The notes under the pieces were generated by a model. It made no database searches. It saw only the letters and a list, made by a program, of their open reading frames with translations, and was not told the DNA's origin. Both the position numbers and the translations under genes were made by a program. A stretch of DNA of 64,000 nt from positions 4,364,175 through 4,428,174 of the forward strand of contig NC_134032.1 in assembly GCF_964204645.1 (NCBI RefSeq), written 5' to 3'. This DNA comes from Tubulanus polymorphus. Lineage: Eukaryota; Animalia; Nemertea. This document shows, piece by piece, positions 13,301 to 49,891 of this stretch (position 1 is the first letter of the stretch; the number at the start of each line of letters is the position of its first letter).

Positions 13301-13328
13301 TCAATTTCAATAAAAATTTGTATAATAA

Positions 13329-13670
13329 ATGGAGAGTAAACAAGTACACAGTGAATTCTTAGATAGAATTAAAGATACTTCAAGCGTCAAATCTGTAGAT
13401 TATAAATTTAAAAAAATAACTGAGTTAACAATTCACAAGAAATATTTAATTACTAACATTGAAACAATTACTAATAAATATGGAGATAAATTAGTAATTC
13501 ATTTAGAATATGAAGGATTAAAAGGAAATAAATATAAATTCAGAACTTATTTACCAGATAGATTTCATAGATTATCAAGTGAAGATCTAGAAGAATTATG
13601 TTCTGGAGATTTCTATTTCATATATAAAGGTAAGAATGAAAAAGGGCACCACGATATTGATTTTGAATGA
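13329..13670 (+). CDS. 113-aa protein, possibly OB-fold/ssDNA-binding
   Basis: Nearly identical in E2; TAAATG start; beta-rich pattern (YLITNIETITNKYGDKLVIHL, TYLPDRF); function is a guess. Confidence 0.7.
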   Translation: MESKQVHSEFLDRIKDTSSVKSVDYKFKKITELTIHKKYLITNIETITNKYGDKLVIHLEYEGLKGNKYKFRTYLPDRFHRLSSEDLEELCSGDFYFIYKGKNEKGHHDIDFE

Positions 13671-13685
13671 AAATATGTAAAATAA

Positions 13686-14444
13686 ATGGCGGAATTAAAA
13701 GAATACAGAATATTTGTTGATTCTAGAAAACTTACAAATTATAAATCACATAATTTACTAGTTCAATTAGATAGAGAATTTAAGAATTGTGTTGATTTAA
13801 AATTAGTAAATATAAGTTTATGTAATTCTTTTTACAATATATCGAATAAAACTATTGAACATAATACTTTTTTAATTCATATTAGAAATATAAATAAATG
13901 GTTTCATCTATTTCTAAGACCAGGATTATATAATTTAGAAACATTAGCTCAAGAAATTAATCGTAGAGCACGGTTGAAAATTAGAAAAGATGATAAATTT
14001 TTAATAAGATTTATAAAAAGTGATAGCTCAAATAGAATTAAAATAAAGGTATTTGATGAAAGTCAACATGCATTTATGGTAAAAAAACCTATAGCTAAAT
14101 TGCTAGGAATTGAACCAGATGTTGTTACAGTAAACGTAGAAGGTATTTCAAATATAATACCTTTTACACATTTTTATATTTATTGCAATTTAATTGACCC
14201 TACAAAAACATTTGAAGCAACTAAAGATACAATTTGTAGTTCTAGTATACTAAATATTTTACCGCTAAAAAATGTTAAACAATTTGGAACTCAAATAAAT
14301 TATAATTTAACAGAATGTGATTTTAAACCTTGCATTCCTAAATTAAATAATTTTAAATTAGAAATAAGAAATCATAATGGATATTTAATTGATTTGAATA
14401 ACTTTCCTGTGATATATGAATTAGTTATAAGATGTAGAGAGTAA
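13686..14444 (+). CDS. Minor capsid (penton) protein, single jelly roll
   Basis: Size and motifs FYIYCNLI, ILNILPL, LEIRNHNGYLIDLN..PVIYEL resemble Polinton pentons. Confidence 0.8.
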   Translation: MAELKEYRIFVDSRKLTNYKSHNLLVQLDREFKNCVDLKLVNISLCNSFYNISNKTIEHNTFLIHIRNINKWFHLFLRPGLYNLETLAQEINRRARLKIRKDDKFLIRFIKSDSSNRIKIKVFDESQHAFMVKKPIAKLLGIEPDVVTVNVEGISNIIPFTHFYIYCNLIDPTKTFEATKDTICSSSILNILPLKNVKQFGTQINYNLTECDFKPCIPKLNNFKLEIRNHNGYLIDLNNFPVIYELVIRCRE

Positions 14445-14460
14445 TTTTTCACCTATATAA

Positions 14461-14808
14461 ATGAATATAACTGTTGGACCGAGTATATGTTTTGGATTTG
14501 ATTTTAAACGTGAGAAAGAAATGAAATTTAACATTAATGATGTAATTACACATATCAAAAATATTGCATTTTCTAATGGAACAACATTTGAGTATAAAAA
14601 AACAATTGATAAAGAAACTTTTAATGTAGAAAAGATTACTGAGTCTTTAAGATTTTATGAATTAGATGAAGATTTTATAATCGATGATATTAAAAACATA
14701 TTATCCAAAATATATGATAATCATAAAACTAGTAATGAAATTAATGTTGAATTAATCATAAATAAGTTAACTAAATATTTTGATGATAGTAATTTTTTTG
14801 ATAAATAA
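14461..14808 (+). CDS. Hypothetical protein, 115 aa
   Basis: Orthologue in E2 (48387-48728); TAAATG start. Confidence 0.75.
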   Translation: MNITVGPSICFGFDFKREKEMKFNINDVITHIKNIAFSNGTTFEYKKTIDKETFNVEKITESLRFYELDEDFIIDDIKNILSKIYDNHKTSNEINVELIINKLTKYFDDSNFFDK

Positions 14809-15030
14809 ATGAGTGATAATAAGTGGATAATAACTGGATTATATAATGGCGCATTACTATCAGTTGGAACGGTTGGTTATTCAATGGTATTAAAAAAAGT
14901 ATTCAAAATGGGAAGTGTTAATGTTGATAGATTTGATATAAATGATATTTTAAAGTTAACATTAGCAGTTACTTTATCTAATTTAACTATCGATTATTTG
15001 GAAAAACAAAAATATATTCCTCCCATATAA
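14809..15030 (+). CDS. Small hydrophobic/amphipathic protein, 73 aa
   Basis: Identical protein in E2; the upstream stop and this start form TAAATG. Confidence 0.8.
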   Translation: MSDNKWIITGLYNGALLSVGTVGYSMVLKKVFKMGSVNVDRFDINDILKLTLAVTLSNLTIDYLEKQKYIPPI

Positions 15031-15055
15031 ATGCATAATTTTTTTTGCTAAATAA

Positions 15056-15478
15056 ATGGCTTCTGCAATTATAACTATTATAGGATCGGCAATTGTTAAC
15101 GCTTTAGCATTTACTGGTGGTGGTTATTTATTTAAACATATTGATAAAAATAGTTCATTAGGAGAACAAAGAAGACATAACTTAGCGTTAGAGAAATACA
15201 ATAAAGCTGCAGAAGAATATAGAGAAAAGAGGCAAAACTATATGGATTACATCAATAAAGAATTATATGATCAGAAGATTTCACATAGAGATTTTCAATC
15301 AGTTGATGATGCAATGAGTTTATATAACGCAGTAACAAATAAAGAAAAATTACATCTATACAAACCTAAATTATCAGATTATTATACCCCAAGTAAAGAA
15401 CAACAGAAATATGAAATAATTTGGATTTTAGGTGGAACAGTTATTGTTATATTTGTTGCTTATAAGTTTACTAATTAG
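15056..15478 (+). CDS. 140-aa protein with hydrophobic N-terminus, coiled coil and C-terminal TM helix
   Basis: Identical protein in E2 despite synonymous changes. Confidence 0.85.
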   Translation: MASAIITIIGSAIVNALAFTGGGYLFKHIDKNSSLGEQRRHNLALEKYNKAAEEYREKRQNYMDYINKELYDQKISHRDFQSVDDAMSLYNAVTNKEKLHLYKPKLSDYYTPSKEQQKYEIIWILGGTVIVIFVAYKFTN

Positions 15479-15497
15479 TAATTTTTATTCTAAATAA

Positions 15498-15932
15498 ATG
15501 GAAGATAAAGTTGATAGTATTGATATTATTCCTCATGATATAAATAAAACTAAATTAAAAACATATTTAGAAAAACAAATATTAGAATTTGAAAGTGACT
15601 TAAAGATAAAAAAGAAAAAATATTTAAAAAGTAAAATTATATATTATCTTATTATAAGTGGTTCGGTTACAATTAGTTCTGTAATAACATTTTTAGCAAT
15701 ATTCAGTCCATTAACACCTTTAGCTATATCAATTGGTGTATTAGGATTAAGTTCAAGTGTTTTAACTGGTATAAGTTCAAAATTAAATATAAAAAGTAAT
15801 AAAGAAAAAATTAAAACTAATATAAAAGAAATTAATAAATTAAAGAATACACTAGATTATATAATAAGTTTAAATGGCCATATAACAGCTGAAGAACAAG
15901 ATAAATTATTAAAAGAATTAATAAATTATTAA
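15498..15932 (+). CDS. 144-aa two-TM-helix protein
   Basis: Central hydrophobic hairpin IIYYLII...LTGIS; conserved in E2. Confidence 0.85.
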   Translation: MEDKVDSIDIIPHDINKTKLKTYLEKQILEFESDLKIKKKKYLKSKIIYYLIISGSVTISSVITFLAIFSPLTPLAISIGVLGLSSSVLTGISSKLNIKSNKEKIKTNIKEINKLKNTLDYIISLNGHITAEEQDKLLKELINY

Positions 15933-15948
15933 TTTTTTAGTTATATAA

Positions 15949-17337
15949 ATGGCAGATAGTTTTCCAAAAGCTTTCCAATATAATAAATCAATTAAATATA
16001 ATATTCCAGCAATAGATATTAATAAAGATATTACATATAGAAATGAAGTTTTAGATTCATTAACTAATTTAGAAATTTATGTTACTGAAACTTATAATTT
16101 TAATGCAAAGATGGAAAATATATTTCATGTATATTTAATTAATTTTAAAAAATTGAAAGATGAAAAACAATGGTTATTAAAATCTAATATGAAGTATTGG
16201 CAGAATCAATTAAATTTTGCTGTTTATTGTGCAACAACAGGATGTGGAATTAGTTGGAATGATCATTTGAATAATTCTAAATATAAATTAATTCAAAGTT
16301 TATTTAGATTTCATACATACTTTCAAATCAGAATAATATTAAATGAATTAGAGTGCGCTTTACCAGGATCTAGGTATTTCAAAGAATTAGATAATAATAT
16401 TAATTTATCTAAGTTTTATAAAATTTGCAATGAATTTAATATAGATATAAATAATTCTGATTTTAGAACAAAAATTGGAACAATAAGATCACTTCCATGC
16501 CCTAGAAAGATTGCAGAATATTGTGCACTTCCCATACCATCTAATAGTTTTTATAATATCTATAATAATAAATTAGGTTATGGTAAAATAGAAACAAAGG
16601 ATTTAGAAACATTAAATTTCAATAAATTACCAAAATTTTATGATAATTTAAAACAAGAAAACAATAATGGTTGGGTATATTTTATTTTAGAAAATAGTGA
16701 AGGTTTTACTAAATCAGGTATAGAAAGAATAAATCAATCTATTAGAACTTATTTAATTTGTATTTTAGGTGCGCAAGTTGAAACAAGATCACCGATAATT
16801 GGAAATTTGAATACTTCATTCGATGCGCAGAAACAGTTTAAAGTTTTATTTGAAGATTCAATTCATAATGATAAAAATAGATCGATTCCAGAAAACATTA
16901 TAAGATATCAAAATTATTTAGATAAATCTCATGTAAGACTTAATTATTGTATAGGCCCTAATCTATTAATTATTTCTAATGATTTAGTATTAAAGATGGG
17001 AAATATAATTGGTTATAATAATCTAATTAAAACTGCGACAATAAATAATTCATTTGGATTAAATGATATAAATAAAAAGATTATTACTGCTCCAAAATTA
17101 ATGGAAGGTGAAAAAAATAAAAAACATATTCAATCAACTGAAACTAAAACTAAGAATATTAAATTGGATAATGATTCTAAAATAAAAGATTACAATACAT
17201 CAGAAAATAATAGAACTGATATTATTCAACATGATATAATTAAACTAAATGATGATAATGAATCCCATGAAAATACTAAATTAGCTATAACTTGTATAGG
17301 AATTGTAATCGGAGGAATATTATATTTTAAATTTTAA
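15949..17337 (+). CDS. 462-aa protein with C-terminal membrane anchor, function unknown
   Basis: Long ORF conserved in E2; ends LAITCIGIVIGGILYFKF. Confidence 0.88.
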   Translation: MADSFPKAFQYNKSIKYNIPAIDINKDITYRNEVLDSLTNLEIYVTETYNFNAKMENIFHVYLINFKKLKDEKQWLLKSNMKYWQNQLNFAVYCATTGCGISWNDHLNNSKYKLIQSLFRFHTYFQIRIILNELECALPGSRYFKELDNNINLSKFYKICNEFNIDINNSDFRTKIGTIRSLPCPRKIAEYCALPIPSNSFYNIYNNKLGYGKIETKDLETLNFNKLPKFYDNLKQENNNGWVYFILENSEGFTKSGIERINQSIRTYLICILGAQVETRSPIIGNLNTSFDAQKQFKVLFEDSIHNDKNRSIPENIIRYQNYLDKSHVRLNYCIGPNLLIISNDLVLKMGNIIGYNNLIKTATINNSFGLNDINKKIITAPKLMEGEKNKKHIQSTETKTKNIKLDNDSKIKDYNTSENNRTDIIQHDIIKLNDDNESHENTKLAITCIGIVIGGILYFKF

Positions 17338-17353
17338 TTTTTTTATTATGTAA

Positions 17354-19087
17354 ATGGATGTAGAAGGTGGAGAAGATTATGAAATGGGAGAAATGGGAAA
17401 TAATAATGAAGGATATATTGATGATGATTATAATGATGCAGGCGCTAATCTTAATGAAACTAATATTGATAATGATGATGAATCAGCATATAATACTAAT
17501 TTAGGTGAAGATGATGATTATGATGATGATGATGATGATGATCCCGAATTACGTGAAAAATTAAATAAATATTTAAAAGCTCCTGAAATTGGTAGAATTT
17601 CAACTAGAAGAGAAAGAAAAGAATTTATGGAACTATTAGTAAAACAACAAGAAAAATATCCTGATGAACCTATGGAATTATATAAAATGAAATCTAGAGT
17701 AACAGATACAATTGTTAACGAATTACTACCAATAGCTGTAATACATGAAATTGATACAGAAGGTGTTGTAGAACAAATTTTTAAAGATGACCCATATTTC
17801 ACAAATAATTTAGAATTTAAAAATGATTCATGGTATTATAATGTTAATTTAAATAACAAAATTGTATCAATTCAATTATCTAAAATGGGTCAAGAAAATA
17901 TTTATGAACCTGAAATGCGAGCAACATCTACAATTGAAGGTTCAAAAGGTGGTAGAGAATTTCTCAGAATTATATGGAATGCACTCGATAGAATAAATAA
18001 AGAAGAACCAATTCCTAATATTGATATAAACAAATATTCACCATTTAAAAATCCAAATCCAAATCCTACTGATTTTGATCCAGAAATGGAAGAGAATAGA
18101 AATCGATTAGATAGATTGAGATCTTCAACACCCGAAACATCGAGAAGAGACACTCAACAAATTGATAATTATTCAAGTAAATTACAATTAGAAAAACAAA
18201 TTGATAGATTAAGAGATTCAGAAGAACTGATGAATAGTATATCAGATACATCTGGTTCTGAAACTGGAATAAATCGACTGCAATATTTACTAGAAAAAGG
18301 ATTTCTTAATTTAACTGATGAAGAATTAGAAGCATTTCCTAAACAAATACGTAGAGAAATTAAAGGTATACAAGTATCAGCTGATGAAATTGCTAATATT
18401 AAGATGAGATTTTCTAAAATAACCATATTAGAAAAAGAATTAGTTAATGTAGATGAAGAATTAAAACAATTAGAATTAAATAGAGATCTTAATGTAATTT
18501 ATGAAGCTGATTATGAAAGCAGAAAGTTAGCTTTAGTAAAAGAAATAGATGATTTAGAATATAACATAAAATTACAAAAAGAAGAAAGAGATATATTATT
18601 AAAATCATATGATCTTAATCATATTAAAAAATTAAAAGTTATTTTTAAAGATTTGTTGATAAAACCAGATTCTGAAATATCATTAAAAGACAGAATAAGA
18701 TTATTATTTAAGTTAGAAGGTATAACAATTCTTTCAATTGTAACAGCTGTAACTATGTTATTTACAACAATTGGTTTAGCAATATCAAATGCTTTAAAAT
18801 CTACTCCTACTCCCACTCCAAATAAACCAGATAAACCTCCAGGCAATAATTCTATACAAGATAAAGTTAAGGATGGTTTAAAAAAATTAGCAAAATATTT
18901 ATGGGAACTATCAAAGAAATCTGCTGCAGCTTTACCAGGAGTTATTGCTTCAATTGTTGGTTTTATATTGAAATCTGCAGGAAACATTATTAACTTTGCT
19001 GCTGAACATATTATTTTATTTTTAATTACAGTTGTAAGTGCTATTATTTTTGGTTTAGTAAATATGATATCAAAAAATATCAAGTAA
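17354..19087 (+). CDS. 577-aa acidic/coiled-coil protein with C-terminal hydrophobic helices and variable middle
   Basis: N- and C-termini conserved with E2 44384-45841; middle not alignable. Confidence 0.88.
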   Translation: MDVEGGEDYEMGEMGNNNEGYIDDDYNDAGANLNETNIDNDDESAYNTNLGEDDDYDDDDDDDPELREKLNKYLKAPEIGRISTRRERKEFMELLVKQQEKYPDEPMELYKMKSRVTDTIVNELLPIAVIHEIDTEGVVEQIFKDDPYFTNNLEFKNDSWYYNVNLNNKIVSIQLSKMGQENIYEPEMRATSTIEGSKGGREFLRIIWNALDRINKEEPIPNIDINKYSPFKNPNPNPTDFDPEMEENRNRLDRLRSSTPETSRRDTQQIDNYSSKLQLEKQIDRLRDSEELMNSISDTSGSETGINRLQYLLEKGFLNLTDEELEAFPKQIRREIKGIQVSADEIANIKMRFSKITILEKELVNVDEELKQLELNRDLNVIYEADYESRKLALVKEIDDLEYNIKLQKEERDILLKSYDLNHIKKLKVIFKDLLIKPDSEISLKDRIRLLFKLEGITILSIVTAVTMLFTTIGLAISNALKSTPTPTPNKPDKPPGNNSIQDKVKDGLKKLAKYLWELSKKSAAALPGVIASIVGFILKSAGNIINFAAEHIILFLITVVSAIIFGLVNMISKNIK

Positions 19088-19132
19088 ACCATGATATCAA
19101 AAAATATCAAGTAAACCATGATATCAAAAAAT
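19070..19132. repeat. 27-bp tandem duplication (~2.5 units) at the end of the 577-aa gene
   Basis: ATGATATCAAAAAATATCAAGTAAACC repeated; single copy in E2. Confidence 0.8.
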
Positions 19133-19160
19133 AAATAATTAATTTTTTTTGGTTAAATAA

Positions 19161-20408
19161 ATGAGTGGGAGTTATATAAGTCCTTCGAAGAATCATAGAA
19201 TATCTAATGCTATTAAAGCAGAAAGATCACATCATATAATTACTCATAACTTTTCAAATATTAATCCCGATGAAACTTTATATGTGAGGATTCCTCGATT
19301 AACACAAAATACTTTTTATGTTCCAAAGAGTATTTATTTATCAGCCGATATAAAAGTATCTGGTAATAATAATAATTATGTTGTTGATAATGTTGGAAGA
19401 TATTTGATTAAAAAGTTAACAATAAAGATTGGTCCAGAAACAGTTTTCTCATTAGATGATTATAATTTATTTATGCATTATAAAGATTTATGGTTAACTA
19501 AAGAAAATAGAAATAATATGATATTTCAAGGAATTCAATCAGAAAACCAAAATAAATTAAGATCAGAAGCTTATAGCGCAATATTAACTAATGATGTAGA
19601 TAAATTGATAAAAAGTATATATGGAAGCAAATATAAAATTCCATTAGACTTTGAATTGATAAATAATAATGCACCTTTATATAAATACGCAATTCAAGAA
19701 GACGTTATATTTGAGATAACATTTGCTCCTGTAAATGAAATTGTATTATCTAGCGTTGTTAAAGATATGGGTTATAAATTATCGAATATATGTTTAGAAT
19801 ATGATACAGTAACTGATGAAAATATTTCAAGTATAATTCAAACTCAATACAATCAAGGATTTTCATTATTATATGATTATATCGATAAATTTAAAACTGT
19901 AACTATTAATGCAAATGATGAAATAATTAATGAGAATATTAACTTTCCTAGAAGATCTATTAAAGGTATATTAATATTTTTTACCATTGGAACGTATACT
20001 AATGGCGCAATAAATGTTGATAATTATTATAATCCTGAAATAACAAAAGTAGAAATAACTATCGAAGGAATAGCGAATAAAATATTCTGTCAAGGAATGA
20101 GAATGATTGATCAATGGGTAGAAATTAAAAAACATTTTATGAATGAAAAAGTGAAATCATCTGAAGATTGTAATATTAATCAAATTGATTATTATACCGG
20201 TAATAAATATGCATTATGGTTAGATTTTAGAACAACTGAAGATAATTCATTACATGGTTCTGGAAAAAAACTACAGAACACTAAAGATGGAATACAATTA
20301 TTCATGACAAAGAATAAAGGAATCAAAAATTTTAAAATGCACATTTATATTATATCTGACGCGCAATTAAATATTGTAAATTCACAATTAGATAGTGTTA
20401 TGTATTAA
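19161..20408 (+). CDS. Major capsid protein (double jelly roll)
   Basis: 415 aa, beta-rich, N-terminal pattern NINPDETLYVRIP..FYVPKSIYLSADIKV, IKKLTIKIG; highly conserved with E2; only ORF fitting an MCP. Confidence 0.8.
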   Translation: MSGSYISPSKNHRISNAIKAERSHHIITHNFSNINPDETLYVRIPRLTQNTFYVPKSIYLSADIKVSGNNNNYVVDNVGRYLIKKLTIKIGPETVFSLDDYNLFMHYKDLWLTKENRNNMIFQGIQSENQNKLRSEAYSAILTNDVDKLIKSIYGSKYKIPLDFELINNNAPLYKYAIQEDVIFEITFAPVNEIVLSSVVKDMGYKLSNICLEYDTVTDENISSIIQTQYNQGFSLLYDYIDKFKTVTINANDEIINENINFPRRSIKGILIFFTIGTYTNGAINVDNYYNPEITKVEITIEGIANKIFCQGMRMIDQWVEIKKHFMNEKVKSSEDCNINQIDYYTGNKYALWLDFRTTEDNSLHGSGKKLQNTKDGIQLFMTKNKGIKNFKMHIYIISDAQLNIVNSQLDSVMY

Positions 20409-20440
20409 AATTTTAACTTTAATAAAAATATATATAATAA

Positions 20441-21343
20441 ATGGAAGGAGGTAAAGTATATAAACATATTCCATACATCGATACACATGAAAATAATGAT
20501 GGTTTATATTATGTAATACCTTGTAATATAGCTTTGATATTTGATCCTATTTTTAAAAATTATAAAACTAAACTGATAGAAATCGATAATAATAAAAGTG
20601 GTGTTGTTAATAATAGTATAATTGATAATAATGTAATACCTACTACACCTGTAATACCTACTACTACATCTGTAATACCTACTACTACATCTGTAATACC
20701 TACTACAGTAATACCTACTACATCTAATAATGTAATACCTTCTACATATAATAATGCAATAATATTAGATGTTAGTGAAAATAGAAATTATTGTGGTTAT
20801 TGTAATGGTGAATTTTCAAACGCTCCATCAAATTGGAATAAACATATGAATACAAAGGTACATATTACTAATGTTATAGAACGTGTTGGTTTAAGAGAAT
20901 TTATAGAACACCCATTTAGATATGTTACAAAATTTGTTTCAAATAAAAAAGTAAATGGTAAAGAATTATATGAAGATTTTTTATTAGCAACACCTAATAG
21001 AGATGAATTAGATTTAACCGATGCTAATGAAATATTAGGATCAAATATTGTAAATGAAATATTAGGAGCAAACACTAATAAAGATAATAATGATAATGAT
21101 GCCATAAAGCACCCACATGATGATATAGTTACAGATAAGCATATTGATAATAAAGATTCTATAAAACTTAAAGTAGAAAATAATAATAAATTTGATTGGA
21201 TGAATAAGTTTAAAAATGAAACAACTATTGATGATGCGGTAAAAAAGATGAAGAATGAGTATAAAAATAATGAAGAATTTGAAAAAGAAAATTCGGTAGA
21301 TAATTTGAGAAAATTGTTAGGATATAATAGTGAAAGTGATTAA
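20441..21343 (+). CDS. 300-aa protein with (VIPTTT)n repeats and a C2H2-like Zn finger
   Basis: CGYC...WNKHMNTKVH motif; minisatellite ~20632-20750; orthologue in E2. Confidence 0.85.
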   Translation: MEGGKVYKHIPYIDTHENNDGLYYVIPCNIALIFDPIFKNYKTKLIEIDNNKSGVVNNSIIDNNVIPTTPVIPTTTSVIPTTTSVIPTTVIPTTSNNVIPSTYNNAIILDVSENRNYCGYCNGEFSNAPSNWNKHMNTKVHITNVIERVGLREFIEHPFRYVTKFVSNKKVNGKELYEDFLLATPNRDELDLTDANEILGSNIVNEILGANTNKDNNDNDAIKHPHDDIVTDKHIDNKDSIKLKVENNNKFDWMNKFKNETTIDDAVKKMKNEYKNNEEFEKENSVDNLRKLLGYNSESD

Positions 21344-21521: not shown

Positions 21522-21529
21522 ACAAATAG

Positions 21530-40299: not shown

Positions 40300-40302
40300 A
40301 AT

Positions 40303-41391: not shown

Positions 41392-41995
41392 AGATTTATT
41401 TATATTTGAACCACATAATATGTTAGTTACTGGAGTTACAAATTGTGGTAAAACACACTTCATATTAGACTTGTTAGAAACTATTTATAAAAATCATTTT
41501 GATAATATAATATTATTCTGTCCTACTTATGAAATGAATAAAACGTATAATAGAGATATAGTTAAGATAAAAAAGTTTATTATATTAGACCCTAAAACAG
41601 TAAAAGAAAATTTAGATAATTGTATAAAAATTACATTAGATATTTATAAAGGATCAAATACATTATTTATTATTGATGATTGCGCAAATTTACATGATTC
41701 TAAAATTAGAGAAAGTGAGTTATGTTATCTAGCTTTCTCTGGGAGACATTTTGGGATAACAACTTGGGTTTTAAATCAGAAATATAATTCAATTGTTAAA
41801 GACTTTAGGGAGAATATAAGATTTCTAGTTTTATTTTATAACAAAGATAAAAAATCTATGCAACAATCATTGGAAGAAAATCAAATTATACCTACTGAAT
41901 TACATGATGAATATATGAATAAATTAAAGAATAATAAAGGTTCCAAATTACTTATGAGATTACAATTTCCATATGAATATAAGTTTATAAAATAA
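41384..41995 (+). CDS. A32/FtsK-like packaging ATPase
   Basis: GVTNCGKT, FIIDD, GRH motifs. Confidence 0.95.
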   Translation: MNKDLFIFEPHNMLVTGVTNCGKTHFILDLLETIYKNHFDNIILFCPTYEMNKTYNRDIVKIKKFIILDPKTVKENLDNCIKITLDIYKGSNTLFIIDDCANLHDSKIRESELCYLAFSGRHFGITTWVLNQKYNSIVKDFRENIRFLVLFYNKDKKSMQQSLEENQIIPTELHDEYMNKLKNNKGSKLLMRLQFPYEYKFIK

Positions 41996-42134
41996 CTATT
42001 TGTATACCTATGTATTAGATACCTTAATACCTAATACCCCATTAGATGCCCTAATACCTGATACCCTATTAGATACCTTAAATAATTAAAACCTTTTTTT
42101 ATTTACTATTATTTTATACAATTTTCAACTTTTA

Positions 42135-43061
42135 TTATTCGAGTGTTAGATAATTACTTTCTGAATCACTTTCACTATCAGACGGCCCTAACAACATATT
42201 TAAATGCTCTACCGAATCTTCTTCTAATTTTTCATTATTTTTATACTTATTCTTCACCTTTTTTACCGCATCATCAATAGTTGTTTCATTTTTAAACTTA
42301 TTCATCCTTTCTATTATATCATCAATAGTTACTACTTTATGTTTCATAGAATCTTTATTATCAATATGCTTATCTGTAACTATATCACCATGTGGGTGCT
42401 GTATGGCGGCACCATTTTCATTATTATCTTTATTAGTGTTTGCTCCTAATATTTCATTTACAGTGTTTGATCCTAATATTTCATTAGCATCGGTTAAATC
42501 TAATTCATCGTTATTAGGTGTTGCTAATAATAAATCTTTATATAATTCTTTACCATTTACTTTTTTATTTGAAACAAATTTTGTAACATATCTAAATGGG
42601 TGTTCTATAAATTCTTTTTTGCCAACACGTTCTATAACATTAGTAATATGTGAATTTGTATTCATATGTTTATTCCAATTTGATGGAGCGTTTGAAAATT
42701 CACCATTACAATAACGACAATAATTTCTATTTTCACTAACATCTAATATTATTGCATTATTAGATGTAGAAGGTATTACATTATTTGATGTAGAGGGTAT
42801 TACAGATGTAGTAGGTATTACAGATGTAGTAGGTATTACAGATGTAGTAGTAGGTATTACATTATTATCAATTACACTATTATTAACAACACCACTTTTA
42901 TTATTATTACGTTCAATTAAATATTCTTTGTATTGATTTAATTCATTTAATAAAAATGTTCCAATATATTCATTTATTCTTTTATAAGGTATTATATAAT
43001 ACAAATCATCATTGATTTCTTTATCAGCTTTGATTCTTTCATATACTTTACCTCCTTCCAT
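42135..43061 (-). CDS. 308-aa Zn-finger/PTT-repeat protein
   Basis: Orthologue of 20441-21343 with divergent termini. Confidence 0.85.
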   Translation of the reverse strand: MEGGKVYERIKADKEINDDLYYIIPYKRINEYIGTFLLNELNQYKEYLIERNNNKSGVVNNSVIDNNVIPTTTSVIPTTSVIPTTSVIPSTSNNVIPSTSNNAIILDVSENRNYCRYCNGEFSNAPSNWNKHMNTNSHITNVIERVGKKEFIEHPFRYVTKFVSNKKVNGKELYKDLLLATPNNDELDLTDANEILGSNTVNEILGANTNKDNNENGAAIQHPHGDIVTDKHIDNKDSMKHKVVTIDDIIERMNKFKNETTIDDAVKKVKNKYKNNEKLEEDSVEHLNMLLGPSDSESDSESNYLTLE

Positions 43062-43093
43062 TTATTATATACATTTTTATTAAAGTTAAAATT

Positions 43094-44341
43094 TTAATAC
43101 ATAACACTATCTAATTGTGAATTTACAATATTTAATTGTGCGTCAGATATAATATAAATGTGCATTTTGAAATTTTTGATTCCTTTATTCTTTTTCATGA
43201 ATAATTGTATTCCATCTTTAGTGTTCTGTAGTTTTTTTCCAGAACCATGTAATGAATTATCTTCAGTTGTTCTAAAATCTAACCATAATGCATATTTATT
43301 ACCGGTATAATAATCAATTTGATTAATGTTACAATTTTCAGATGATTTTACTTTTTCATTCATAAAATGTTTTCTAATTTCTGGCCATTGATCAATCATT
43401 CTCATTCCTTGACAGAATATTTTATTCGCTATACCTTCGATAGTTATTTCTACTTTTGTTATTTCAGGATTATAATAATTATCAACATTTATTGCACCAT
43501 TAGTATACGTTCCAATGGTAAAAAATATTAATATACCTTTAATAGATCTTCTAGGAAAGTTAATATTCTCATTTATTATTTCATCATTTGCATTAATAGT
43601 TACAGTTTTAAATTTATCAATATAATCATATAATAATGAAAATCCTTGATTGTATTGAGTTTGAATTATACTTGAAATATTTTCATCAGTTATTGTATCA
43701 TATTCTAAACATATATTCGATAATTTATAACTCATATCTTTATTAACGCTAGATAATACAATTTCATTTACAGGAGCAAATGTTATCTCAAATATAATAT
43801 CTTCTTGAATTGCGTATTTATATAAAGGTGCATTATTATTTATCAATTCAAAATCTAATGGAATTTTATATTTGCTTCCATATATACTTTTTATCAATTT
43901 ATCTACATCATTTGTTAATATTGCGCTATTAGCTTCTGATCTTAATTTATTTTGGTTTTCTGATTGGATGCCTTGAAATATCATATTATTTCTATTTTCT
44001 TTAGTTAACCATAAATCTTTATAATGCATAAATAAATTATAATCATCTAATGAGAAAACTGTTTCCGGACCAATCTTTATAGTTAATTTTTTAATCAAAT
44101 ATCTTCCAACATTATCAACGACATAATTATTATTATTACCGATTACTTTTATATCAGCTGATAAATAAATACTATTTGGAACATAAAAAGTATTTTGTGT
44201 TAATCTAGGAATTCTAACATATAAAGTTTCATCGGGATTAATATTTGAAGGGTTATGAGTAATTATATGATGTGATCTTTCTGCTTTAATAGCATTAGAT
44301 ATTCTAGAAATCTTTGAAGGACTTATATAACTCCCACTCAT
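43094..44341 (-). CDS. Major capsid protein
   Basis: Orthologue of 19161-20408. Confidence 0.8.
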   Translation of the reverse strand: MSGSYISPSKISRISNAIKAERSHHIITHNPSNINPDETLYVRIPRLTQNTFYVPNSIYLSADIKVIGNNNNYVVDNVGRYLIKKLTIKIGPETVFSLDDYNLFMHYKDLWLTKENRNNMIFQGIQSENQNKLRSEANSAILTNDVDKLIKSIYGSKYKIPLDFELINNNAPLYKYAIQEDIIFEITFAPVNEIVLSSVNKDMSYKLSNICLEYDTITDENISSIIQTQYNQGFSLLYDYIDKFKTVTINANDEIINENINFPRRSIKGILIFFTIGTYTNGAINVDNYYNPEITKVEITIEGIANKIFCQGMRMIDQWPEIRKHFMNEKVKSSENCNINQIDYYTGNKYALWLDFRTTEDNSLHGSGKKLQNTKDGIQLFMKKNKGIKNFKMHIYIISDAQLNIVNSQLDSVMY

Positions 44342-44383
44342 TTATTTAACAAAAAAAATTAATTATTAATTTTTAATCATGGT

Positions 44384-45841
44384 TTACTTGATATTTTTTG
44401 ATATCATATTTACTAAACCAAAAATAATAGCACTTACAACTGTAATTAAAAATAAAATAATATGTTCAGCAGCAAAGTTAATAATGTTTCCTGCAGATTT
44501 CAATATAAAACCAACAATTGAAGCAATAACTCCTGGTAAAGCTGCAGCAGATTTCTTTGATAGTTCCCATAAATATTTTGCTAATTTCTTTAAACCATCC
44601 TTAACTTTATCTTGTATAGAATTATTACCTGGAGGTTTATCTGGTTTATTTGGAGTAGGAGTAGATTTCAAAGCATTTGATATTGCTAAACCAATTGTTG
44701 TAAATAACATAGTTACAGATGTTAGAATTGAAAGAATTGTTATTCCTTCTAACTTAAATAATAATTTTATTCTGTCTTTCAATGATATTTCAGAATTTGG
44801 TTTTATCAACAAATCTTTAAAAATAACTTTTAATCTATTAATATTATAATCATATGATTTTAACAATAATTTAATTTCTTCTTTTTGTAATTCTATGTTA
44901 TATTCTAAATCATCTTTTTCTTTTTCTAAATATGCATTTCTTTTTTTAAATTCAATTTCTTCAATAACTTTATTATCTCTATCTAATTTTAATTGTTCTA
45001 TTTCTTTATTTTTATCAGTTAATTCTTTTTCTAAAGTTCTAATTTTAAAATCTCTTATACTTTTATCATGCGCAATTTTATTAGATGCAAGTCTTATACT
45101 AATAATTTCTCTAATTGCTTTATCAGAAAATATATCTAAATCTTCTAATTCTTGATCTGTTGCATCAATTAATCCATTCGGTAAAAGTTTTTCAATTGGA
45201 ACTTTATTTGATTTAAGTTTACTAGTTTTAGAAGTTATATTCTGTTCAGAAGTTGTTTCTGTTTCTAAATTATTATCGATTGTTTCAAATAATTCATTAA
45301 TTCTTTGTTTAAATACTCTTTCATTTTTAATAATTTCTTCTTGTGTTACATCTTCTGTTTCATTACTATTTCTTATTCTTTTAATTCTAGATAGGTCTAA
45401 CTTAAGCAAAGTTGATTCTGCTAATATTTTTTCTTGTTTTTTATAAGAGATATCAATATAATAATCATCTTTCAAATGATAATAATATTCACCATCTAAA
45501 AACTTTAATTCTTGTACTAAAAGTCTAGCGCCTCTGACATTGATATTATATCCAGATTTTTCAAATATAGGTTTGAAATTATAAATATATTCATTATATT
45601 CTAAATTTTGTTTTACTAAATCTGGATTTTCATTTTCAGGATTTATTCTCGATCTAGTTCTTCTATCAAATTCATCTGTTGATTGACCTTTAGAACCACT
45701 ATCTACTAAATTAGAATTATATGCTGATTCATCATCATTATCAATATTAGTTTCTGCATCATTATAATCATCATCAATATATCCTTCATTATTATTTCCC
45801 ATTTCTCCCATTTCATAATCTTCTACACCTTCTACTTCCAT
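44384..45841 (-). CDS. 485-aa coiled-coil/membrane protein with variable middle
   Basis: Orthologue of 17354-19087. Confidence 0.88.
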   Translation of the reverse strand: MEVEGVEDYEMGEMGNNNEGYIDDDYNDAETNIDNDDESAYNSNLVDSGSKGQSTDEFDRRTRSRINPENENPDLVKQNLEYNEYIYNFKPIFEKSGYNINVRGARLLVQELKFLDGEYYYHLKDDYYIDISYKKQEKILAESTLLKLDLSRIKRIRNSNETEDVTQEEIIKNERVFKQRINELFETIDNNLETETTSEQNITSKTSKLKSNKVPIEKLLPNGLIDATDQELEDLDIFSDKAIREIISIRLASNKIAHDKSIRDFKIRTLEKELTDKNKEIEQLKLDRDNKVIEEIEFKKRNAYLEKEKDDLEYNIELQKEEIKLLLKSYDYNINRLKVIFKDLLIKPNSEISLKDRIKLLFKLEGITILSILTSVTMLFTTIGLAISNALKSTPTPNKPDKPPGNNSIQDKVKDGLKKLAKYLWELSKKSAAALPGVIASIVGFILKSAGNIINFAAEHIILFLITVVSAIIFGLVNMISKNIK

Positions 45842-45857
45842 TTACATAATAAAAAAA

Positions 45858-47246
45858 TTAAAATTTAAAATATAATATTCCTCCGATTACAATTCCTATA
45901 CAAGTTATAGCTAATTTAGTATTTTCATGGGATTTATTATCATCATTTAGTTTAATTATATCATGTTGAATTTTATCAGTTTTTATATCTTCTGATGTAT
46001 TGTAATCTTTTATTTTAGAATCATTATCCAATTTAATATTATTAGTTTTAGTTTCAGTTGATTGAATATGTTTTTTATTTTTTTCACCTTCCATTAATTT
46101 TGGAGCAGTAATAATCTTTTTATTTATATCATTTAACCCAAATGAATTATTTATTGTTGCAGTTTTAATTAGATTATTGTAACCAATTATGTTTCCCATC
46201 TTTAATACTAAATCATTAGAAATAATTAATAGATTAGGGCCTATACAATAATTTAGTCTTACATGAGATTTATCTAAATAATTTTGATATCTTATAATGT
46301 TTTCTGGAATCGATCTATTTTTATCATTATGAATTGAATCTTCAAATAAAACTTTAAATTGTTTTTGTGTATCGAATGATGTATTCAAATTTCCAATTAT
46401 CGGTGATCTTGTTTCAACTTGTGATCCTAGAATACAAATCAAATAAGTTCTAATAGATTGATTTATTCTTTCTATACCTGATTTAGTAAAACCTTCACTA
46501 TTTTCTAAAATAAAATAAACCCAACCATTATTGTTTTCTTGTTTTAAATTATCATAAAATTTTGGTAATTTATAGAAATTTAATGTTTCTAAATCCTTTG
46601 TTTCTATTTTACCATAACCTAATTTATTATTATAGATATTATAAAAACTATTAGATGGTATGGGAAGTGCACAATATTCTGCAATCTTTCTAGGGCAAGG
46701 AAGTGATCTCATTGTTCCAATTTTTGTTCTAAAATCAGAATTATTTATATCTATATTAAATTCATTGCAAATTTTATAAAACTTAGATAAATTAATATTA
46801 TTATCTAATTCTTTAAAATATCTAGATCCTGGTAAAGCGCACTCTAATTCATTTAATATTATTCTGATTTGAAAGTATGTATGAAATCTAAATAAACTTT
46901 GAATTAATTTATATTTAGAATTATTCAAATGATCATTCCAACTAATTCCACAACCTGTTGTTGCACAATAAACAGCAAAATTTAATTGATTCTGCCAATA
47001 CTTCATATTAGATTTTAATAACCATTGTTTTTCATCTTTCAATTTTTTAAAATTAATTAAATATACATGAAATATATTTTCCATCTTTGCATTAAAATTA
47101 TTAGTTTCAGTAACATAAATATATAAATCAATTAATGAATTTAAAACTTCATTTCTATATGTAATATCTTTATTAAAATCTATTGCTGGAATATTATATT
47201 TAATTGATTTATTATATTGGAAAGCTTTTGGAAAACTATCTACCAT
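45858..47246 (-). CDS. 462-aa C-terminally anchored protein
   Basis: Orthologue of 15949-17337. Confidence 0.88.
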   Translation of the reverse strand: MVDSFPKAFQYNKSIKYNIPAIDFNKDITYRNEVLNSLIDLYIYVTETNNFNAKMENIFHVYLINFKKLKDEKQWLLKSNMKYWQNQLNFAVYCATTGCGISWNDHLNNSKYKLIQSLFRFHTYFQIRIILNELECALPGSRYFKELDNNINLSKFYKICNEFNIDINNSDFRTKIGTMRSLPCPRKIAEYCALPIPSNSFYNIYNNKLGYGKIETKDLETLNFYKLPKFYDNLKQENNNGWVYFILENSEGFTKSGIERINQSIRTYLICILGSQVETRSPIIGNLNTSFDTQKQFKVLFEDSIHNDKNRSIPENIIRYQNYLDKSHVRLNYCIGPNLLIISNDLVLKMGNIIGYNNLIKTATINNSFGLNDINKKIITAPKLMEGEKNKKHIQSTETKTNNIKLDNDSKIKDYNTSEDIKTDKIQHDIIKLNDDNKSHENTKLAITCIGIVIGGILYFKF

Positions 47247-47263
47247 TTATATAATTAAAAAAA

Positions 47264-47698
47264 TTAATAATTTATTAATTCTTTTAATAATTTATCTTGT
47301 TCTTCAACTGTTATATGACCATTTAAACTTATTATATAATCTAGTGTGTTCTTTAATTTATTAATTTCTTTTATATTAGTTTTAATTTTTTCTTTATTAC
47401 TTTTTATATTTAATTTTGAACTTATACCAGTTAAAACACTTGAACTTAATCCTAACACACCAATTGATATAGCTAAAGGTGTTAATGGGCTGAATATTGC
47501 TAAAAATGTTATTACAGAACTAATTGTAACCGAACCACTTATAATCAAATAATATATAATTTTACTTTTTAAATATTTTTTCTTTTTTATCTTTAAGTCA
47601 CTTTCAAATTCTAATATTTGTTTTTCTAAATATATTTTTAATTTAGTTTTATTTATATCATGAGGAATAATATCAATACTATCAACTTTATCTTCCAT
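47264..47698 (-). CDS. 144-aa two-TM protein
   Basis: Orthologue of 15498-15932. Confidence 0.85.
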   Translation of the reverse strand: MEDKVDSIDIIPHDINKTKLKIYLEKQILEFESDLKIKKKKYLKSKIIYYLIISGSVTISSVITFLAIFSPLTPLAISIGVLGLSSSVLTGISSKLNIKSNKEKIKTNIKEINKLKNTLDYIISLNGHITVEEQDKLLKELINY

Positions 47699-47717
47699 TT
47701 ATTTAGAATAAAAATTA

Positions 47718-48140
47718 CTAATTAGTAAACTTATAAGCAACAAATATAACAATAACAGTTCCACCTAAAATCCATATTATTTCATATTTCTGTTGTTCTT
47801 TACTTGGGGTATAATAATCTGATAATTTAGGTTTGTATAGATGTAATTTTTCTTTATTTGTTACTGCGTTATATAAACTCATTGCATCATCAACTGATTG
47901 AAAATCTCTATGTGAAATCTTCTGATCATATAATTCTTTATTGATGTAATCCATATAGTTTTGTCTCTTTTCTCTATATTCTTCTGCAGCTTTATTGTAT
48001 TTCTCTAACGCTAAGTTATGTCTTCTTTGTTCTCCTAATGAACTATTTTTATCAATATGTTTAAATAAATAACCACCACCAGTAAATGCTAAAGCGTTAA
48101 CAATTGCTGATCCTATAATAGTTATAATTGCAGAAGCCAT
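47718..48140 (-). CDS. 140-aa membrane protein
   Basis: Orthologue of 15056-15478. Confidence 0.85.
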   Translation of the reverse strand: MASAIITIIGSAIVNALAFTGGGYLFKHIDKNSSLGEQRRHNLALEKYNKAAEEYREKRQNYMDYINKELYDQKISHRDFQSVDDAMSLYNAVTNKEKLHLYKPKLSDYYTPSKEQQKYEIIWILGGTVIVIFVAYKFTN

Positions 48141-48164
48141 TTATTTAACAAAAAAATTATGCAT

Positions 48165-48386
48165 TTATATGGGAGGAATATATTTTTGTTTTTCCAAGTA
48201 ATCAATAGTTAAATTAGATAAAGTAACTGCTAATGTTAACTTTAAAATATCATTTATATCAAATCTATCAACATTAACACTTCCCATTTTGAATACTTTT
48301 TTTAATACCATTGAATAACCAACCGTTCCAACTGATAGTAATGCGCCATTATATAATCCAGTTATTATCCACTTATTATCACTCAT
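48165..48386 (-). CDS. 73-aa hydrophobic protein
   Basis: Orthologue of 14809-15030. Confidence 0.8.
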   Translation of the reverse strand: MSDNKWIITGLYNGALLSVGTVGYSMVLKKVFKMGSVNVDRFDINDILKLTLAVTLSNLTIDYLEKQKYIPPI

Positions 48387-48728
48387 TTATTTATCAAAAA
48401 AATTACTATCATCAAAATATTTAGTTAACTTATTTATGATTAATTCAACATTTATTTCATTACTAGTTTTATGATTATCATAAATTTTGGTTAATATGTT
48501 TTTAATATCATCAATAATTCCATCTTCATTTAATTCATAATATTCTAAAGGTGATTTAATTAAATCAATTACTTTTTCTATATTATAATTTTCTTTATCA
48601 ATCATTGACACATTGTTAAATGATTTACTTTTTATATCAGTAATTACGTCATTTAGTTTAATTCTCATTTCTTTACCATGTTTAAAATCAAACCCAAAAC
48701 ATATACTCGGTCCAACAGTTATATTCAT
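48387..48728 (-). CDS. Hypothetical protein, 113 aa
   Basis: Orthologue of 14461-14808. Confidence 0.75.
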   Translation of the reverse strand: MNITVGPSICFGFDFKHGKEMRIKLNDVITDIKSKSFNNVSMIDKENYNIEKVIDLIKSPLEYYELNEDGIIDDIKNILTKIYDNHKTSNEINVELIINKLTKYFDDSNFFDK

Positions 48729-48744
48729 TTATATAATGAAAAAA

Positions 48745-49506
48745 TTACTCTTTACATCTTATAACTAATTCATAAATTACAGGAAAGTTATTTAAATCAA
48801 TTAAGTATCCATTATGATTTCTAATTTCTAATCTAAAATTATTAAAACGAGGAATGCATGGTTTGAAATCACATTCTGTTAAATTATAATTTATTTGCGT
48901 TCCAAATTCTTTAACATTCTTCAATGGTAAAATGTTTAGTAAACCAGAATTACAAGTTATATCTTTAGTTGCTTCGAATGTTTTTGTAGGATCAATTAAA
49001 TTGCAATAAATATAAAAATGTGTGTAAGGTATTAAGTTTGGTGTAGTAGCGTCAATATTTGTAAAAGATCTATGTGGAAGAATTCCTAACAGTTTAGCTA
49101 TAGGTTTTTTTACCATAAGTTTATGTTTTTCACTATTAGACAACCTTATCTTTATTCTATCAGAACTCTCACTTTTTAAAAATCTAATACTAAACCCAGA
49201 ACTACTACCTAATTTGTGCCAGGCTTTTCTATTAATTTCTTGTGCTAATGTATCTAAATTATATAACCCTGGTTTTAAATATATATAGACCCATTCATTT
49301 TTATTTTTATTAAAAACTAAAAAGACTCTATGTTCAATAGACTTATCCGATACATTGTAAAAAGAATTACATAAACTTATATTTACTGATTTTAAATCTA
49401 CACAATTCTTAAATTCTCTATCTAATTGTACTAATAAATTATGTGATTTATAATTTGTAAGTTTTCTAGAATCAACAAATATTCTGTATTCTTTTAATTC
49501 TACCAT
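48745..49506 (-). CDS. Minor capsid (penton) protein
   Basis: Orthologue of 13686-14444. Confidence 0.8.
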   Translation of the reverse strand: MVELKEYRIFVDSRKLTNYKSHNLLVQLDREFKNCVDLKSVNISLCNSFYNVSDKSIEHRVFLVFNKNKNEWVYIYLKPGLYNLDTLAQEINRKAWHKLGSSSGFSIRFLKSESSDRIKIRLSNSEKHKLMVKKPIAKLLGILPHRSFTNIDATTPNLIPYTHFYIYCNLIDPTKTFEATKDITCNSGLLNILPLKNVKEFGTQINYNLTECDFKPCIPRFNNFRLEIRNHNGYLIDLNNFPVIYELVIRCKE

Positions 49507-49521
49507 TTATTTTACATATTT

Positions 49522-49863
49522 TCATTCAAAATCAATATCGTGGTGCCCTTTTTCATTCTTACCTTTGTATACGAAATAGAAATCTCCAGAACATAATTCT
49601 TCTAGATCTTCACTTGATAATCTATGAAATCTATCTGGTAAATAAGTTCTGAATTTATATTTATTTCCTTTTAATCCTTCATATTCTAAGTGTATAACTA
49701 ATTTATCTCCATATTTATTAGTAATTGTTTCAATGTTAGTAATTAAATATTTCTTGTGAATTGTTAATTCTGTTAACTTTTTGAATTTATAATCTACAGA
49801 TTTAACGCTTGAAGTATCTTTAATTCTATCTAAGAATTCACTGTGTACTTGTTTACTCTCCAT
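49522..49863 (-). CDS. 113-aa protein, possibly OB-fold
   Basis: Orthologue of 13329-13670. Confidence 0.7.
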   Translation of the reverse strand: MESKQVHSEFLDRIKDTSSVKSVDYKFKKLTELTIHKKYLITNIETITNKYGDKLVIHLEYEGLKGNKYKFRTYLPDRFHRLSSEDLEELCSGDFYFVYKGKNEKGHHDIDFE

Positions 49864-49891
49864 TTATTATACAAATTTTTATTGAAATTGA

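Follow-up and report, generated by a model that had tools for sequence, protein, structure and literature searches.

Two Polintons lie in the 64,000-nucleotide stretch of the Tubulanus polymorphus genome that we analysed (the window), and most of their genes begin at a two-part signal in which an A/T tract, its last base a near-invariant T at -12 (the A of the ATG being +1), is followed by TAAATG over the start codon. It is likely, judging from the sequence, that this signal is a late-type promoter for the RNA polymerase of a large DNA virus. If such a promoter is read by a co-infecting virus, the element would function like an endogenous virophage.

Two Polinton insertions and their genes

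The original prediction placed the elements within positions 13326..49866. The elements are real but their true extent is wider, namely, 8780-27143 and 35638-54409.

8780..27143, + strand: Polinton E1, 18,364 bp, 24% GC, AG...CT ends
8780..9382: E1 left terminal inverted repeat (TIR), about 600 bp, 98.5% identical to the right repeat; contains the start signal of the polymerase gene
26544..27143: E1 right TIR
35638..54409, - strand: Polinton E2, 18,772 bp, opposite in orientation to E1
35638..36222: E2 TIR, 585 bp, 98.3% identity
53834..54409: the other E2 TIR

E1 is flanked by the 6-bp target-site duplication (TSD) AATATT and E2 by a distinct one of its own, AACTCT, also 6 bp, and thus E1 and E2 are separate insertions. 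The empty site of E1 is present in public sequencing runs (joint 8772->27143, in 4/4 runs) and the E1 insertion is recent and polymorphic. The DNA flanking the elements is presumably LINE-like. Both copies are 76% AT and, since they are 90-97% identical over the main aligned blocks, counts made in E1 and E2 are not independent evidence. The anatomy is that of a Polinton, with a DNA polymerase B of the protein-primed type (pPolB), an rve integrase, an A32 ATPase, a double jelly-roll capsid protein, a penton, TIRs, and the 6-bp TSD. The genes and their starts are as follows.

9269..13300, + strand: E1 pPolB; TAAAATG start, T at -12
13329..13670, + strand: 113-aa gene, no assigned function; TAAATG, T at -12
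13686..14444, + strand: penton (minor capsid protein); TAAATG, T at -12
14461..19087, + strand: six packed genes of 115, 73, 140, 144, 462, and 577 aa; each TAAATG, T at -12
19143..19163, + strand: example of the full signal, 5' of the E1 capsid gene (tract 19143-19149, TAAATG 19158-19163)
19161..20408, + strand: double jelly-roll major capsid protein, 415 aa
20441..21343, + strand: 300-aa gene (g300) whose product has a weak C2H2-like zinc finger; start TAAATG, preceded by an A-tract
21530..22144, - strand: A32-type packaging ATPase; TGAATG in E1, TAAATG in E2
22137..23222, - strand: rve integrase with chromodomain; TAAAAT just 5' of the ATG
23229..24219, - strand: 131-aa and 200-aa genes; TAAATG, T at -12
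24523..25200, - strand: endonuclease VII/HNH-like gene, 225 aa; TAAATG; phrog_1035, E 4e-15
37047..37838, + strand: E2-only 263-aa gene, no assigned function; TAAAATG, T at -12
38392..49863: E2 counterparts of the 15 shared genes other than pPolB; 14 start TAAATG
43094-44341, - strand: E2 capsid gene
49892..53922, - strand: E2 pPolB, in two frames (51502-53922 and 49892-51346)

The pPolB gene is broken in both copies; in E1 it is split over three frames (9269-10654, 10623-12374, and 12470-13300), the middle one of which matches Pfam DNA_pol_B_2 (E 3e-12). The penton was assigned because its predicted model matches the mavirus penton (E 7e-9), and the integrase has an rve match (E 7e-8) in addition to the chromodomain. 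The six genes at 14461..19087 are spaced by 0-25 nt and family searches with them gave no informative match; the 577-aa product is the longest protein in the element without an assignment. The matches of the 263-aa E2-only protein in the ESM Atlas were uninformative. No adenain or adenovirus-type maturation protease, a common component of group 1, was matched in Pfam at E 0.01 among the 21 element proteins. As had been claimed, the element appears to carry no RNA polymerase: sequence searches with the element proteins gave no match to an RNA polymerase or capping enzyme, nor to TBP, TFIIB, or VLTF3, and no transcription factor was detected in them, although several of the unassigned proteins could be transcription factors.

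The start signal in E1 and E2

A recount reproduced the reported TAAATG starts at 13/16 shared genes in E1 and 14/16 in E2; counting the E2-only gene at 37047, the E2 figure is 14/17. The exceptions are also those that had been described, with TAAAATG at pPolB and the 37047 gene, TAAAAT upstream of the integrase, and TGAATG at the E1 ATPase. Enrichment of TAA before true starts over internal ATGs, which had been put forward as a test, is strong. Within E1 genes TAA precedes only 19/255 out-of-frame sense ATGs (P 3e-11), and it precedes 44/495 of the non-gene ATGs that come first after a stop in E1 (P 5e-11), so that control ATGs carry TAA at 7-9% overall. When all ATGs are taken, TAA precedes 57/757 in E1, 63/741 in E2, and 3-6% in the host flanks.

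Upstream of TAAATG, the T-run and spacer of the original prediction stand in part, in that an A/T tract is real but is a T-run at some genes only; at others, for example pPolB and g300, it is an A-tract. The spacing of the signal is fixed: as before the E1 capsid gene, the tract ends in the T at -12 and is followed by a spacer of 8 nt and then by TAAATG. This T is present at 62/65 true starts compared to 43/118 non-start TAAATG sites (P 2e-16), and at 23/24 starts of loci with GC of at least 30%. Similarly, an A/T hexamer 8 or 9 nt upstream is found at 56/65 and 55/65 starts, respectively, versus 26/118 and 25/118 of the non-start sites. A strict composite motif, derived from the same data on which it was counted, has 12 occurrences in each of E1 and E2, every one of them at a gene start, and a single one in 26.8 kb of flanking DNA. 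The signal precedes replication and capsid genes alike. We do not propose a two-stage promoter code, because the A- and T-tract subtypes are unstable across orthologues and none of the 16 E1 starts matches the published vaccinia intermediate consensus.

Distribution across related Polintons

The comparison with other Polinton clades, also proposed beforehand, separates the relatives sharply. In 12 loci of the clade TAAATG marks 52/58 starts, whereas only 37/782 out-of-frame ATGs there have it, and in 8 sister (outgroup) loci it is at 0/50 starts. The difference holds at matched composition, with 15/16 in the clade versus 0/10 in the outgroup for loci of 29-33% GC, and 9/11 versus 0/40 for loci of 36-49% GC. 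The TAAATG loci and the window elements form one capsid clade (SH-aLRT 98 in a quick tree) within which the capsid proteins are only about 51% identical, and still the motif is strictly kept. In head-to-head gene pairs with gaps of 19-72 nt, 11/12 starts are TAAATG, and the motif is kept even where such genes are only 19-30 nt apart. The sister loci have instead, no more than 25 nt from the ATG, a T-tract plus TATA (33/50 starts versus 38/583), which resembles the late promoters of asfarvirus (ASFV), and two of these loci encode a weak VLTF3-like protein. A related-locus scan of genome contigs gave two short fragments, neither of which has a gene start.

Comparison with viral promoters

The likeness to a poxvirus late promoter, as originally proposed, agrees with the published layout. 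In two accounts of vaccinia (PMC5294985, PMC11980589) the late promoter is a T-containing core, a gap of 5-7 nt, and TAAAT, and the second of them puts a conserved T some 10 nt upstream. The Polinton signal has the same two-part arrangement, with TAAATG over the start codon, an A/T core upstream of it, and a conserved T about 10 bases upstream. It differs in that its spacer from the T is 8 nt and in that it stands on 81-90% of genes, including replication genes. The T at -12 is 9 nt 5' of the first T of TAAAT, a one-base offset from the 10th nucleotide given in the review.

TAAATG is not specific to poxviruses. In 11 giant-virus loci, which were selected for motif richness, 59/119 starts are TAAATG, with the T at -12 in 32/59, and four of the records behind these loci have capsid proteins of the iridovirus/marseillevirus type. 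In the iridovirus/marseillevirus-related giant-virus bins G001, G004, and G005 and in locus L119 an AT-rich tract and TAAATG stand at about half of the sampled starts, but the T is at -12 in only 54%, the T tract is diffuse (-13 to -9), and the base after the ATG is A in 63%, whereas it is G in 71% in the Polinton clade. Thus, of the proposal of a poxvirus-like helper, the fit of the motif layout stands, but a poxvirus helper is not established because giant viruses related to iridoviruses and marseilleviruses also start genes at TAAATG; the inducible or antiviral role proposed with it is likewise putative.

The helper model

Matching of promoters between virophage and helper is an accepted mechanism for mavirus-type elements (PMC8547959). 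On the strength of the motif, we think it probable that the genes of E1 and E2 are transcribed as late genes by a co-infecting large DNA virus, as is the case with virophages. A poxvirus-like virus is the best fit of the candidate helpers, though the chance that it is the helper is somewhat short of even; an iridovirus/marseillevirus-related helper seems quite unlikely, and some other large DNA virus takes what is left of the probability given to the model. RNA would start inside TAAAT beside the start codon and give a leaderless mRNA or one with a poly(A) leader. The provirus would be mostly silent until late factors of a helper are present, whereupon the polymerase, integrase, and capsid genes would be activated jointly, and the activated element would replicate, be packaged, and re-integrate. 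It counts against the model that the element would have to enter the nucleus for excision and integration and could therefore depend in part on expression driven by the host. Scanning viral contigs for the motif brought up giant-virus loci that match it in part; none of those inspected was recognisable as a poxvirus, and no helper was identified. The HNH gene (12 matches) and the deoxynucleoside kinase of a relative (38 matches), used as queries for homologues, named no helper either, and a scan of viral contigs with the capsid, the ATPase, and both alignments found no relative.

Alternative explanations

The alternative that survives best, which we nevertheless regard as unlikely, is that the signal is a compact promoter for host RNA polymerase II in the nucleus and that the element is autonomous, relying on a host factor or on an unrecognised factor of its own such as the 300-aa zinc-finger protein. 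That no helper was identified, that several element genes are without assignment, and that TATAAA or AATAAA occurs at 56/65 starts all speak for it, as does the reported expression of coral polintoviruses in ordinary samples, including control colonies, for which the available part of the report (10.1101/2023.10.06.561300) describes no helper. However, according to PMC5294985, transcription under a TATA box begins about 25-30 nt downstream of it, and here this would land within coding sequence; just 19-30 nt are left between some head-to-head genes; and the element has no match to TBP, TFIIB, or VLTF3. Moreover, AATAAA is plentiful and undepleted in coding DNA (70 versus 71 expected in E1 and 157 versus 164 in relatives), which fits expression without nuclear 3' processing.

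It is improbable that the polymerase is supplied, in place of a giant virus, by a different mobile element that encodes an NCLDV-type RNA polymerase, as the yeast killer plasmids do, or that the promoters are a relic of a lost helper. There is a precedent in the yeast linear plasmids, which derive from polintons (PMC11161782) and which, as PMC7458399 describes, combine a minimal NCLDV-related polymerase with poxvirus-like promoter elements. But a polymerase subunit was found in 0/21 window proteins and in 0/21 unassigned proteins of relatives, and a relic is hard to reconcile with a motif kept so strictly over such divergent capsids and with a recent, polymorphic insertion.

Very improbable is a role of the motif in translation or RNA processing on read-through RNA, whether for stop-start reinitiation, as an acceptor in trans-splicing, or as the upstream gene's poly(A) signal. 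The gaps in the E1 core are 0-32 nt, TAA is an in-frame stop, and AATAAA overlaps 33/65 starts, as such a role would have it. But TAA occurs 52 times and TAG or TGA never among the 58 starts of the relatives, and the motif is kept at head-to-head genes, where there is no upstream gene on the same strand. TAA is the neighbour's stop in only 2/65 cases and ends any upstream ATG-started frame in 12/65, and YAG lies within 15 nt of only 4/65 starts. Stop-start coupling, trans-splicing, and poly(A) overlap were rejected. Finally, although the elements are AT-rich, there is practically no chance that the motif is a by-product of composition and short spacers, as control ATGs rarely carry TAA and the motif is kept in clade loci of 36-44% GC (9/11) but absent from the AT-matched outgroup (0/10).

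Among other signals, the early-termination word TTTTTNT is depleted in the coding DNA of relatives (12 versus 38), but this was discarded as evidence because A-runs are depleted too and the depletion is therefore unspecific. Splice-donor words in coding DNA show no depletion and no clear enrichment.

Relation to known systems

E1 and E2 share with the Mavericks/Polintons (Polintoviricetes; adintoviruses, Starrett et al., PMC8502044) the core genes, TIRs of about 600 bp, AG...CT ends, the 6-bp TSD, and the many integrated copies. They differ from them in having no detected adenain-type protease and in having the clade-wide start motif of late-promoter type; the word promoter is absent from the main text of PMC8502044, and our literature search found no earlier report of such promoters in animal Polintons. 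With mavirus and the type-4 EMALEs of Cafeteria (PMC8547959) they have in common that they are integrated, combine pPolB with an rve integrase, lack an RNA polymerase, and place a single late-type motif before their genes. Those elements, however, have a protist host, a TCTA motif, CroV as the helper, and reactivation that has been shown, whereas E1 and E2 have an animal host and a TAAATG motif. A link between polinton-like viruses and entomopoxviruses, mentioned in the original prediction, is in print: AHEV_PLV1/2 and CBEV_PLV1 (Barth et al. 2024, PMC11296320) are small Polinton relatives associated with entomopoxviruses and proposed as hyperparasites of animal poxviruses. Unlike E1 and E2, they were found in occlusion bodies, measure about 12 kb, and lack an rve integrase, having a tyrosine recombinase or none. 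Promoter, motif, and transcription are unmentioned in the main text of that report, and TAAATG appears in its supplement only twice, both times in repeat tables.

Virions of animal Polintons have not been observed (10.64898/2026.06.19.733378), and the clade-wide 30-bp signal bears on whether these elements are expressed autonomously or with a helper. The signal makes helper dependence testable and is a sequence handle in the search for a helper. If the helper model is right, virophage-type parasitism, and possibly defence, would reach from protists to elements integrated in animals, and the switch between TAAATG and TATA at the level of clades would record a change of helper virus. A broader reading, which we offer tentatively and consider doubtful, is that one widespread lineage of animal Polintons is made up of endogenous virophages and that its sub-clades have had their promoters re-tuned to different helper families, TAAATG with the T at -12 to a poxvirus-like helper and the T-tract plus TATA of the sister loci, some with a VLTF3 of their own, to an asfarvirus-like one. 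Were this true, the promoter code would lead one to expect relatives of poxviruses, as yet undiscovered, in these animals, together with an antiviral element in animal genomes that is both heritable and inducible. The contigs of one sequencing run, X1, reach 83 kb, against less than 4 kb in X2 and X3, and in this run a variant is present at about 24 times the depth of the flanks, an excess that is only a lead.

The two Polintons and their gene content

The window carries two Polinton copies:
8780-27143, E1, opposite in orientation to E2, AT-rich (24% GC)
35638-54409, E2, opposite in orientation to E1, AT-rich (24% GC)

E1 and E2 are each bounded by terminal inverted repeats some 600 bp long with AG...CT ends, and each has a 6-bp target-site duplication of its own; they are therefore separate insertions of one family, and their main aligned blocks are 90-97% identical. 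In both, the gene for the protein-primed polymerase B is broken; they further encode an rve integrase with a chromodomain, an A32 ATPase, an endonuclease VII/HNH-like protein, a penton that best matches the mavirus penton, and a double jelly-roll capsid protein whose predicted model (pLDDT 83) best matches the capsids of PBCV-1 and Singapore grouper iridovirus. Sequence searches with the E1 and E2 proteins, several of which have no assignment, detected no protease, RNA polymerase, capping enzyme, TBP, TFIIB or VLTF3, and this agrees with the original prediction that the elements encode no RNA polymerase.

Tandem repeats of 108 nt (25348-25700) and 127 nt (37928-38273) adjoin the HNH gene in each element; they contain GC-rich palindromic words, and an origin or a protein-binding array is possible. 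The second terminal repeat (E1 26370-26657, minus strand; E2 36134-36307, plus strand) holds a further copy of the start signal of the polymerase gene and of its first codons; in E1 this copy continues into a duplicate of the 3' end of the HNH gene.

The start signal

The predicted TAAATG counts were reproduced, namely, 13 of the 16 shared genes in E1 and 14 of 16 in E2, and TAA is enriched before true starts, since it precedes only 19/255 out-of-frame ATGs and 44/495 of those non-gene ATGs that are the first to follow a stop. As had also been claimed, the polymerase gene and the 263-aa gene of E2 at 37047 use TAAAATG, and in both the T at -12 (A of ATG as +1) is retained. The anatomy of the signal was drawn from 65 TAAATG starts, 52 from metagenome relatives and 13 from E1. 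T is at -12 in 62 of them compared to 43/118 non-start TAAATG, and the A/T content is 92-100% from -18 to -12, freer from -11 to -8, and high again from -7 to -4. A strict composite (A/T tract ending in this T, spacer, TAAATG) was worked out on this very set of sequences, so that its hit rate (12 in E1 and 12 in E2, all at gene starts, and 31/58 starts in relatives) is circular but the scarcity of stray matches, one in 26.8 kb of flank and two in 53 kb of relatives, is not; the outgroup has it at 0/50 starts. TAA is the stop of a neighbouring gene at only 2/65 starts, and among head-to-head genes whose ATGs are 19-72 nt apart the motif marks 11/12 starts. Judging from its sequence, the signal is best read as a promoter with its start site at the ATG, because it has two parts at a fixed spacing and works back-to-back in under 30 bp.

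Restriction to one capsid clade

Forty metagenome loci were retrieved with the capsid alignment. A quick tree built from 59 capsid proteins groups L001-L014 with the window in one clade (SH-aLRT 98). Genes in the relatives were called blind to the motif, and counts were taken from the clade loci other than the near-duplicates L002 and L012 (12 of 14) and, as the outgroup, from 8 of the other 26 (L017 and L024 being duplicates, L021 and L026-L040 fragmented). Set against other Polinton clades, as the original prediction had proposed, TAAATG is at 52/58 starts in the clade, compared to 37/782 internal ATGs, and at 0/50 outside it. The contrast persists when composition is matched (15/16 vs 0/10 near 30% GC; 9/11 vs 0/40 at 36-49% GC), and while gene order is shuffled among loci the motif still tracks gene starts.

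Deoxynucleoside kinase, which large DNA viruses commonly encode, occurs in the clade at L003:10340-10981 (minus strand; Pfam dNK, E 2e-31) and, by weak similarity, at L006:2898-3380 (minus strand). Some contigs of 0.5-1.6 kb in records under the name Bartonella sp. hold capsid fragments of the clade (P0045 cluster); the source is probably animal host DNA that entered those assemblies.

Outgroup starts have a different signal: 33/50 have TATA no more than 25 nt away from the ATG, compared to 38/583 internal ATGs, and the TATA is preceded 9-15 nt upstream by a T-rich stretch. In L015, L016, L018-L020, L022, L023 and L025 this T-tract and TATA lie 5-26 nt before the ATG. The arrangement resembles asfarvirus late promoters; in ASFV these combine a TATA initiator with a T-rich element between -15 and -11 (PMC5294985, PMC7458399). 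Weak, sub-threshold VLTF3-like proteins are encoded at L016:6543-7052 (E 6e-4) and L020:5082-5579 (E 4e-5), and a sequence search of the window found none. AATAAA is depleted in the outgroup (16 vs 27), as are TpA words generally; it is possible that the sister loci use a more host-adapted mode.

Poxvirus or iridovirus relatives

The vaccinia late promoter has a T-containing core followed about 5-7 nt on by TAAAT (PMC5294985), and its 10th nucleotide upstream is a conserved T (PMC11980589). In the Polintons the conserved T precedes the T of TAAAT by 9 nt. TAAATG is also annotated at late genes of an entomopoxvirus and a fish poxvirus (PMC3061580, PMC4542343). An A/T hexamer lies 8 nt upstream in 56/65 starts and 9 nt upstream in 55/65. 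This agrees with a late-promoter consensus made up of six A/T, nine free bases and TAAAT.

Motif-only scans of IMG/VR gave 28 loci and then at least 120, most of them poor in TAAATG starts (132/763 overall in the second set), and giant-virus loci rich in such starts were also among the matches listed. Eleven giant-virus loci selected for richness have TAAATG at 59/119 starts, with T at -12 in 32 of the 59. The nearest structures to the G001 and L119 capsid proteins are those of iridovirus and melbournevirus, and the G004 and G005 capsid proteins are 68-69% identical to that of G001. In L067, L071, L078, L119, L091 and L094 (G001, G004, G005) about half of the sampled starts are TAAATG preceded by a T-rich tract, which may be a late promoter of these iridovirus/marseillevirus-related bins. 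Iridovirus relatives infect marine and other invertebrates (PMC5923455). Of the predicted likeness to poxvirus late promoters the layout stands, being close to that of vaccinia, but the motif is not peculiar to poxviruses. The sharp T at -12 favours a poxvirus-like helper, with iridovirus relatives still candidates. A further viral contig of 16.5 kb (L142) has an A32 ATPase, a virophage- or PLV-like layout and TAAATG at 6/9 locus genes.

How the genes may be transcribed

We think it probable that a co-infecting large DNA virus supplies the polymerase, which would transcribe these genes as late genes. Mavirus-type elements likewise have one signal on all genes, and their motif matches the late promoter of the helper (PMC8547959, 10.1101/2025.10.09.676808). 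Transcription by the helper would start at the ATG; silence without the helper, replication and a benefit to the host are what we infer beyond this. AATAAA is undepleted in clade coding DNA (70 vs 71 in E1; 157 vs 164 in relatives), which would suit transcription outside the host 3'-processing system and is no proof of it. TTTTTNT depletion (12 vs 38) was set aside because A-runs are depleted likewise.

Host Pol II with an unrecognised factor could drive the genes instead, and control coral colonies do express coral polintoviruses (10.1101/2023.10.06.561300); we regard this as the less likely course. Dependence on another polymerase-bearing element, or a relic, is unlikely. A signal acting at the RNA level is more doubtful still: YAG is near the start in 4/65. 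Chance can practically be dismissed.

Among protist virophages and PLVs, promoters that match those of a helper are already known. PLVs associated with entomopoxviruses, named in the original prediction, are indeed in print (PMC11296320), the main text, as far as accessible, making no mention of promoters. A literature search of partial coverage found no poxvirus- or NCLDV-type promoters in animal Polintons, and a prior mention is possible; the word 'promoter' is absent from the accessible main text of PMC8502044 and 10.64898/2026.06.19.733378 and, by text-search listing, from that of the coral preprint (10.1101/2023.10.06.561300).

Flanks, insertion polymorphism and read depth

DNA reads of the same species label contain the empty E1 site, and in them the element ends join many different flanks; therefore, the family is multi-copy and the E1 insertion polymorphic. 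Depths were compared over positions 8001-28000 of the window. In the public run X1, an intergenic variant at 24374 is carried by a contig of depth 4,680, about 24 times the 195 of the flank contig. For the same variant X2 gives 127 against 42-66, X3 gives 50 against 24-28, and X7 gives 43 reads against about 54. Another form, lacking 452 nt (15059 to 15512), occurs in X1 alone, at depth 3,500. The contigs of run X1 reach 83 kb and are far longer than those of X2 and X3. The X1 excess has the appearance expected of extrachromosomal amplification and is a lead only, contig depth being no copy number and the library types being off record.

The flanking DNA holds a PHD-finger ORF and reverse-transcriptase-like scraps, which we take to be CR1/L2-type LINEs and which suggest that the host is an animal. 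The ORF (340 aa, 7746-8768) directly precedes the E1 insertion and resembles a LINE ORF1. Host DNA beside the elements also has kilobase-scale inverted duplications (29739-32915 and 54486-57637) and a 114-nt satellite in inverted arrangement (33163-35493).
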